Shown: positions 40,011 through 40,058 of the stretch, in pieces
Layout: each line of letters begins with the position of its first letter
How positions within the stretch are numbered: position 1 is the first letter of the stretch
From: an uncultured Candidatus Poseidoniales archaeon
GTDB lineage: Archaea; Thermoplasmatota; Poseidoniia; Poseidoniales; Poseidoniaceae
Assembly: GCA_964013535.1 (NCBI GenBank)
Contig: CAXGWS010000004.1
Span: 22,854-86,853, forward strand
Direction of reading: 5' to 3'
Length of the DNA stretch: 64,000 nt
The notes under the pieces: model-generated
Told to the model about the DNA's origin: nothing
The model's database searches: none
Seen by the model: the letters and a program-made list of their open reading frames with translations, nothing else
Translations under genes and position numbers: made by a program

Positions 40011-40039
40011 GATTTTCGCAACTTGAGGAGGGACATAAA

Positions 40040-40058
40040 GATAATGATATTCATTATC
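40040..40058. promoter_or_regulatory. Fur-box operator upstream of katG, adjacent to a probable TATA box (minus-strand TTTATGT, 40039-40033)
   Basis: GATAATGATATTCATTATC matches the Fur consensus GATAATGATAATCATTATC at 18/19; perfect GATAATGA-N3-TCATTATC inverted repeat. Confidence 0.85.

Follow-up and report, generated by a model that had tools for sequence, protein, structure and literature searches.

A conserved Fur-type palindrome at the katG promoter of Marine Group IIa archaea and the PerR-like regulator that probably binds it

Results

The katG locus and its host

The stretch of DNA analysed here, 64 kb in length and called the window below, carries a catalase-peroxidase gene, katG, directly followed by a gene for a small Fur-family protein (Table 1). 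All the relevant genes are on the minus strand, with the ATG of katG at 40010. The gap between katG and the regulator gene is 9–10 nucleotides in the window and in the related loci checked, an arrangement that fits the autoregulated katG-fur operon proposed in an earlier note on this DNA, which had been made from the sequence. The SDR gene found downstream has a TATA-like stretch of its own and is thus probably outside the katG-perR unit.

Upstream of katG, 57 nucleotides separate its ATG from the stop codon (40068) of the preceding ORF. On the minus strand this region reads, in order, TAA, 4 nucleotides, TTATTGATAATGAATATCATTATC, TTTATGT, about 22 nucleotides and ATG. The preceding ORF gave no significant match in Pfam, and its product is 38–48% identical across the loci that resemble the window. 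If it starts at ATG 40412, about 23 nucleotides lie between its start codon and that of the divergent NAD kinase gene (ATG 40436); if it starts at TTG 40460 the two genes overlap, in either case an unusually tight divergent pair.

In the window-like loci an NAD kinase gene on the opposite strand is followed by orf114, katG, fur, SDR and orf126, and then by a DDAH-like gene, again on the opposite strand. The SDR, orf126 and DDAH genes are also present in Poseidonia, where katG-fur lies between orf126 and SDR, inverted, and where the SDR gene is on the strand opposite to katG-fur. The box-TATA-katG-fur unit is therefore intact in two locations and orientations relative to SDR, orf126 and DDAH.

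The host belongs to the archaea of Marine Group IIa (Poseidoniaceae). Archaeal markers among the products of the window are a thermosome, an actin-like protein, a TYW2/Trm5-type enzyme, HMG-CoA synthase and a geranylgeranyl reductase, and the nearest relatives of katG, of the Fur-family gene and of the flanking genes are found on contigs of Poseidoniaceae/Poseidoniales (Marine Group IIa) metagenome-assembled genomes (MAGs), so that the assignment to MGII made at first reading stands. A KatG 99.8% identical over 572 residues is encoded on a Sargasso Sea contig (AACY020255448.1). Scanning the 64-kb window for tRNA genes and Rfam families gave no matches. Positions 20001–28000 have a G+C content of 0.35, compared with 0.40–0.44 in the rest of the window, and may represent a genomic island.

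Table 1. Features of the katG region, with positions in the window and, for promoter elements, distances from the katG ATG
Feature	Position	Strand	Remarks
SDR (short-chain dehydrogenase) gene, downstream	36749..37426	-	own A/T-rich TATA-like stretch at 37427-37466
Fur-family regulator gene, 125 aa, PerR-like	37467..37844	-	Pfam FUR; begins 9 nt past the katG stop
katG, full-length catalase-peroxidase, 718 aa	37854..40010	-	Pfam PF00141; NCBIfam NF011635, 1149.8 bits (cut-off 981)
Spacer, about 21-22 nt	40011..40031	-	between TATA-like element and katG ATG; without Shine-Dalgarno motif
TATA-like element TTTATGTC	40032..40039	-	-29..-22; contains TTTATGT (40039..40033); abuts the 19-bp palindrome
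Expected BRE position, CATTATC	40040..40046	-	within right arm of palindrome; inferred from its place directly 5' of the TATA
19-bp Fur-type palindrome	40040..40058	.	-48..-30; 18/19 to the E. coli Fur consensus
Conserved 21-nt core TTATTGATAATGAATATCATT	40043..40063	-	-53..-33; alignment A3 of 25 katG promoters; 27.3 bits
Upstream ORF, function unassigned	40068..40412	-	stop 9 nt before the palindrome, 4 nt before the 21-nt core

A single Fur-type palindrome precedes katG

Read on the plus strand, the palindrome is GATAATGATATTCATTATC, with a single mismatch to the E. coli Fur consensus GATAATGATAATCATTATC and with a perfect 8-3-8 symmetry (arms GATAATGA and TCATTATC around TAT). No other site in the 64 kb comes within three mismatches of this consensus, for which dinucleotide shuffles give a chance expectation of 0.08. 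We also scored the window with a weight matrix derived from 20 different orthologous boxes, the window site being excluded. The palindrome region reached 27.3 bits, the runner-up in the window 10.8 bits, and the best site from 20 shuffled sequences 17.7 bits. The earlier note had described a near-perfect Fur box without a second copy in the window, adjoined by a TATA-like TTTATGT at −29 to −23, and all three points were recovered here, the last from the minus-strand sequence.

The 21-nt core conserved among orthologous promoters holds a 7-1-7 unit, TGATAAT-G-AATATCA (40059 to 40045, dyad at 40052, −49 to −35). Three additional bases in the window lineage give rise to another unit that overlaps the first, and with it to the perfect 19-mer (dyad at 40049); as a consequence the box lies 3 nucleotides farther from the TATA element than in Poseidonia.

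The box adjoins a TATA element at a fixed distance from the katG ATG

In the usual archaeal arrangement the TATA box is centred about 26 nucleotides upstream of the start site. Looking at the 25 aligned katG promoters, we found the core "A" of the TATA element 25–26 nucleotides from the ATG in every case (25/25), while the sequence of the intervening spacer was conserved at just 51–68%. This fixed spacing, together with the lack of a Shine-Dalgarno motif, leads us to predict a leaderless katG mRNA that starts at or within about 1 nucleotide of the ATG, and would suit a promoter of the archaeal TATA/BRE type. When A/T content and TATA-motif positions were examined statistically upstream of 32 other genes of the window, a broad enrichment from −41 to −23 was obtained, with no sharp signal, which does not in itself confirm the prediction.

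The box was also said to cover the expected BRE site, and its position next to a TATA element held at a fixed distance from the ATG in 25 promoters supports this. Bound in one register or the other, a Fur-family dimer would extend over the BRE position (40046-40040) as far as the TATA element. The heptanucleotide CATTATC found at that position is a poor match to the published BRE consensus sequences.

The box is conserved where a Fur-family gene follows katG

We searched the GTDB representative genomes with a profile of the MGII Fur-family proteins, a search with the single Fur protein having returned no loci, so that an alignment-based query was needed. The profile retrieved 39 Poseidoniales loci (38–75% identity) and then proteins from Bacillota (31–37%). 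In 38 of the 39 loci the Fur homologue comes directly after katG. The remaining one, L103 (43-1943), is the sole Poseidoniales locus with a Fur homologue away from katG; this protein, 43% identical and with the PerR ligands intact, is encoded after a CCG-domain gene and a DUF3501 gene, in a locus with no detectable box.

The earlier note had named conservation upstream of other MGII katG genes as a check on the box. We found it at −50 to −53, beside the TATA element, in all fur-linked katG loci with an intact upstream region except L116. In window-like loci it reads TTGATAATGA(AT/TA)ATCATTAT while the flanks change, and five of the loci (L095, L096, L099, L100 and L101) have GATAATGATAATCATTAT, which equals bases 1–18 of the E. 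coli Fur consensus; Poseidonia loci show ATTGAGAAYGANAMTCAWT in the equivalent place. For the two groups, column identity within this core of 21 nucleotides amounts to 0.92 and 0.85, compared with 0.51–0.70 in the flanks. In the exception, L116 (700-795), a katG-fur locus, the left half of the box is replaced (cacatcacagggcAAACTCAggcTTATAAG), and this is the sole fur-positive locus without a scoring box.

We then compared katG loci with and without the regulator gene. A score of at least 17 bits at −50 to −53 was obtained in 36 of the 37 rows of katG loci with a Fur gene, rows in which 5 contigs are included twice. Poseidoniales katG loci were called fur-less when no Fur-family gene was present within at least 1.1 kb downstream, and all 13 that could be fully assessed scored 6.7 bits or less; a further fur-negative locus, L044 (−5.6 bits), was left out of the 13, its contig ending before the katG stop. 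The fur-positive loci supplied the training set of the matrix, and the two sets of loci differ in part in their katG lineage, so that this association between box and fur is not phylogenetically independent. In several of the fur-less loci the promoter is of another, leadered type, with a TATA element near −35 and a GAGG motif ahead of the ATG. Throughout 408 kb of Poseidoniales loci, all sites of at least 17 bits were at katG promoters, at most one per locus and on the katG strand, and none was found at another gene.

Two fur-less loci, L016 and L020 (2940-3000 in both), carry a Poseidonia-type katG, as indicated by the shared Poseidonia-type N-terminus of their KatG. Upstream of it lies only a shortened remnant of the box, AATTGAAACTCAACATTATATGG, which looks like the decay of an operator following loss of its regulator and so points the same way as the association described above. 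To judge from these comparisons, selection acts on the box, which is a genuine element that accompanies katG and the Fur-family gene.

Additional features were noted in these alignments. In Poseidonia (L107-L129), a second conserved element, CTTGAAGATTGAC, lies about −70 to −55 from the katG ATG (columns 7–19 of alignment A3), just upstream of the box and between katG and a divergent orf126 homologue. It may be the promoter of the divergent gene, and the box would then stand between two core promoters. Contig CAXRAI010000037.1, labelled Salinimicrobium sp., contains a pair of katG and fur genes of Poseidoniales type (82% and 45% identity), with a box-TATA arrangement of archaeal type, and is probably a mis-binned archaeal contig. 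Two candidate signs of co-variation were dropped: a change from TGAT..ATCA to TGAG..CTCA as a symmetric compensatory change, many loci being mixed (TGAG..ATCA), and the recognition-helix variants YRQL and YRNL, which track the box variants loosely and follow phylogeny.

These data also bear on the possibility that the palindrome is a chance A/T-rich sequence, a part of the core promoter or the terminator hairpin of the upstream ORF. An RNA hairpin of 8 bp could indeed form 9 nucleotides past the upstream stop codon, with a dG of −8.3 kcal/mol, but its fold z-score is only −1.8 and 10 of 200 shuffled sequences fold equally well; moreover, in Poseidonia the inverted repeat is imperfect, and the gene upstream of it is a divergent one that requires no terminator there. 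As for chance, the expectation is the 0.08 sites given above, and the presence of the box tracks the Fur-family gene. We therefore rejected these readings as highly improbable.

The regulator combines PerR-like sensor residues with a Fur-like Arg in the recognition helix

The protein encoded after katG clearly belongs to the Fur superfamily (PF01475, 60.9 bits for a cut-off of 23.1). Which branch it belongs to was examined using the PerR ligand positions given in PMC8638967 and PMC11724291. Residues H27, D72, H78, H80 and D91 align with the regulatory ligands H37, D85, H91, H93 and D104 of Bacillus subtilis PerR (BsPerR), and these five positions are invariant or more than 90% conserved among 42 homologues. 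Two CxxC motifs (C83, C86, C121 and C124), invariant as well, form a Zn(Cys)4 site. According to PMC8638967, where Parent 2013 and Caux-Thang 2015 are cited, PerR and Irr have Asp at the last ligand position and Fur, Zur, Mur and Nur have Glu, whereas in helix H4 Asn goes with reading of a Per box and Arg with reading of a Fur box. At the position equivalent to BsPerR 104 the protein has Asp91 and not the Glu of an iron Fur. Its recognition helix H4 bears Arg49, which aligns with N61 of BsPerR and with the Arg of Bacillus cereus Fur. Thus, where a PerR would combine Asn in H4 with a Per-box operator (TTATAATNATTATAA), we found Arg49 and the half-site TGATAAT, and the pairing of Arg in H4 with a 19-bp Fur box (18/19) is the one seen in Fur.

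Profile searches gave a similar picture. The top NCBIfam matches were two PerR equivalogs, at 69.3 bits (cut-off 200) and 65.4 bits (cut-off 180), so that neither cut-off was reached; the best Fur model gave 43 bits, also far below its cut-off. PerR profiles ranked first, about 25 bits above Fur profiles, in all eight clade members scanned. The best sequence match in the PDB is B. subtilis PerR, and several clade members are named [quoted passage not shown] by the JGI pipeline. An AlphaFold2 model (pLDDT 86) superimposed on PerR, Zur and Fur structures with TM scores of 0.73–0.78, and fitted the closed PerR-Zn-Mn form (3f8n) best (0.78), a fold that does not discriminate between subfamilies.

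By its sequence, then, the regulator is PerR-like and not an iron Fur. The proposal that Fur is the regulator of katG holds insofar as a Fur-family gene does follow katG; the sensor residues (Asp and the full set equivalent to H37, D85, H91 and H93) are those of PerR, and the signal is accordingly more likely to be peroxide than iron. The combination of a PerR-like Asp with a Fur-like Arg49 agrees with the presence of a Fur-type operator before a gene for peroxide defence.

The same box in bacteria, and the origin of the parts

The catalase of MGIIa has been attributed to horizontal transfer (PMC10783094), and the PerR homologues of non-crenarchaeal archaea have been suggested to come from bacteria (PMC11724291). 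The nearest non-archaeal KatG proteins are those of marine bacteria (73–75% identity), and the nearest bacterial homologues of the regulator, the Bacillota proteins mentioned above, are unlinked to katG. Among the related loci retrieved by the katG and Fur searches, no bacterial donor with katG followed by fur was found. Three marine bacterial loci, one of them labelled Neomarinimicrobiota, have a Fur-like gene immediately before katG (L038:2560-2600, L052:2560-2600 and L032:660-700). In this furA-katG order the Fur-like gene is preceded by an AGTAAT-N7-ATTACT palindrome, and the Fur-like proteins end in C-x-K-H, not in a second CxxC. Six other bacterial loci, mostly alphaproteobacterial (L048, L049, L057, L058, L065 and L086), show TTAGAA-N3-TTCTAA palindromes upstream of katG; we take these to resemble the Irr/ICE-type boxes of another branch of the Fur family.

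A search of metagenomes for the exact 21-mer TTGATAATGAATATCATTATC gave 54 matches, of which only 7 were katG promoters of this lineage. The others, as far as those of mid GC content were examined, were bacterial and lay beside feoA, fecCD, porin or two-component-system genes: in L293 (3377-3655) the longest feoA ORF has the 21-mer within its 5' end, in L341 (3029-3988) the site lies 112 nucleotides upstream of a gene for a fecCD-family permease, and in L294 and L308 77–80 nucleotides upstream of porin genes. On these four contigs the sites are ordinary Fur boxes of bacteria with the sequence of the archaeal operator, and since the 21-mer also precedes bacterial feoA and fecCD, the operator is indistinguishable from a bacterial Fur box. 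When genome contigs were scanned for GATAATGAWWATCATTAT, no Poseidoniales contig was present among the matches listed, at least 80 in number and nearly all bacterial.

A bacterial origin of the parts is plausible. The grafting of a bacterial repressor-operator pair, proposed in the earlier note, finds no support in the nearest bacterial homologues, only 31–37% identical and unlinked to katG, or in the three bacterial loci with a Fur-like gene beside katG, where the order is reversed and the palindrome differs. The fixed register with an archaeal TATA element must have arisen in the archaeal lineage.

As to the signal, the element before katG could be a repressor operator whose regulator senses a metal, as a Fur- or Mur-type sensor of Fe or Mn, and not peroxide. 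The 18/19 agreement with the Fur consensus, extended by the related loci that have GATAATGATAATCATTAT, the Fur-like Arg in helix H4 and the occurrence of the identical 21-mer before feoA and fecCD genes in bacteria would all suit such a sensor. Yet the residue at the position that separates PerR and Irr from Fur, Zur, Mur and Nur (PMC8638967) is Asp and not Glu, the PerR profiles outscore the Fur profiles in each of the clade members scanned, and the sole target detected is a peroxide-detoxifying enzyme, with no other box in the 408 kb of related loci. We thus regard metal sensing as unlikely.

Discussion

The box upstream of katG is very probably the docking site of the PerR-like regulator encoded just after this gene. 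As to how it works, we lean towards a self-regulating repressor, released by peroxide, that acts over the BRE and TATA elements of a leaderless katG-perR operon. Once its regulatory site is loaded with Fe(II) or Mn(II), the dimeric regulator would bind the box (−53 to −30), where it would cover the BRE position and abut the TATA element, and the assembly of TFB and TBP would be prevented. H2O2 would oxidise histidines of the metal site, as in bacterial PerR, and the regulator would leave the DNA; katG and the regulator gene would then be transcribed together, which would amount to negative autoregulation. We infer the binding, the sign of the regulation, the peroxide signal and the co-transcription from the arrangement and conservation of the sequences, and the sign draws support from two precedents, the FurA-katG system (PMC2630230) and the archaeal SisPerR (PMC11724291). 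Several findings go against this model: the PerR cut-off is missed by a wide interval (69 vs 200 bits) and the canonical PerR Asn is absent from H4; the distance from box to TATA differs by 3 nucleotides between the two lineages; and in the window lineage the 7-1-7 core (−49 to −35) overlaps the BRE by just 1–2 nucleotides.

The main rival to the repressor model keeps the same protein and the same site but makes the box an upstream activating sequence, from which the metal-loaded regulator would recruit TFB and TBP to a promoter with a weak BRE. KatG, a haem enzyme, would then be made only at Fe/Mn sufficiency or in a particular redox state of the regulator. Sites of archaeal activators are typically immediately upstream of the BRE or partly over it (PMC7408454), and the conserved core, with its end at −35 (window lineage) or −32 (Poseidonia), sits at this preferred place; the sequence CATTATC, which is not consensus-like, also fits a weak BRE. 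However, the characterised PerR, FurA and archaeal SisPerR proteins are repressors (PMC11724291, PMC2630230), and an activator inactivated by peroxide would lower catalase expression under peroxide stress. Moreover, the TATA boxes are good matches (ATTATAAG and TTTATATA), and the 3-nucleotide shift between lineages suits steric occlusion better than a phased contact. Altogether, activation appears improbable to us.

Beyond repression by a PerR-like protein, one may ask whether the whole unit, katG with its regulator and its operator-TATA element, is a self-contained, peroxide-inducible cassette that came from bacteria and was rebuilt on a TBP/TFB promoter, with a hybrid regulator, with the right arm of the operator doubling as the BRE, and as the first case of direct control of a ROS scavenger by an archaeal Fur-family protein through a defined operator. 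We put this forward tentatively and consider it, taken as a whole, rather doubtful. If it were true, the regulator would be a natural hybrid of a PerR sensor and a Fur-type DNA reader, mirroring the engineered N61R switch of PerR.

Archaea of MGII, which are uncultured, abound in the waters of the surface ocean, and their gene regulation is almost wholly uncharted. We found no paper joining Poseidoniales, peroxide and a transcriptional regulator, and a study of MGII antioxidant functions makes no mention of PerR or of a regulator. The locus provides a concrete, testable model, made up of a 125-aa regulator, a 21-bp operator, a promoter predicted to be leaderless and H2O2 as the predicted signal. 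If this model is right, the horizontally acquired catalase-peroxidase of MGIIa (PMC10783094) would be tied to an inducible response, and the biology of archaeal PerR would reach past the Sulfolobales (PMC11724291) to the direct control of a ROS scavenger. With this protein, the Asp/Glu and Asn/Arg rules for sensing and DNA specificity in the Fur family could also be put to a natural test.

A bacterial-type Fur-family peroxide regulator with an operator overlapping a catalase promoter is already well known. B. subtilis PerR and the MGII protein have in common the fold of the Fur family, a Zn(Cys)4 site and the same regulatory ligands (H37, D85, H91, H93 and D104), and the B. subtilis protein represses a catalase gene and its own gene (PMC11724291). 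It differs in having Asn61 in H4 where the MGII protein has Arg, and identity between the two is only about 30%. Its operators, Per boxes at katA, mrgA and perR, are of the TTATAAT type at sigma-A promoters, in contrast to the TGATAAT type at an archaeal TATA/BRE promoter, and its target is a monofunctional catalase whereas that of the MGII protein is katG.

The FurA-katG system of Mycobacterium tuberculosis is the same module in outline, with a Fur-family gene beside a co-oriented katG and a single operator at the operon promoter. FurA represses furA-katG, which is co-transcribed under autorepression, and is regarded as a functional equivalent of PerR (PMC2630230). The gene order is reversed with respect to the MGII locus, where katG precedes the regulator, and the promoter is bacterial. 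The marine bacterial loci with furA-katG order (L032, L038 and L052) are likewise different, with a protein of 30% identity and another palindrome.

PerR homologues are scarce in most Euryarchaea (PMC11724291). The only characterised archaeal PerR, SisPerR of Saccharolobus islandicus, differs from the MGII protein in its ligands and targets and is without a reported DNA consensus. Like the proposed MGII repressor, it is a Fur-family peroxide-responsive repressor that acts on archaeal promoters and regulates its own gene (PMC11724291). It is without equivalents of H93, C99 and C139, whereas no canonical ligand is missing from the MGII protein, and SisPerR controls the metal-homeostasis genes dps, nirD and mntH and not ROS-scavenging enzymes, while the predicted target of the MGII protein is a ROS scavenger. 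The MGII protein, moreover, has a defined putative operator.

With E. coli Fur, the MGII system has in common the 19-bp box, matched at 18/19 positions in the window, and the Arg of the recognition helix. The metal site, with Asp for Glu, the short length of 125 aa and scores far under the Fur equivalog cut-offs set it apart, and no iron-uptake gene with the box was found in the window or in the 408 kb of related loci.

Lrs14, MDR1 and LrpA are archaeal repressors that occlude the BRE/TATA elements or block the recruitment of RNA polymerase. They belong to other protein families; like the MGII regulator they are DNA-binding proteins of bacterial type, and the steric hindrance at a TBP/TFB promoter by which they act is the mechanism that we propose here for katG. 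The general picture, that archaea run bacterial-type regulators on eukaryote-like promoters, is left unaltered.
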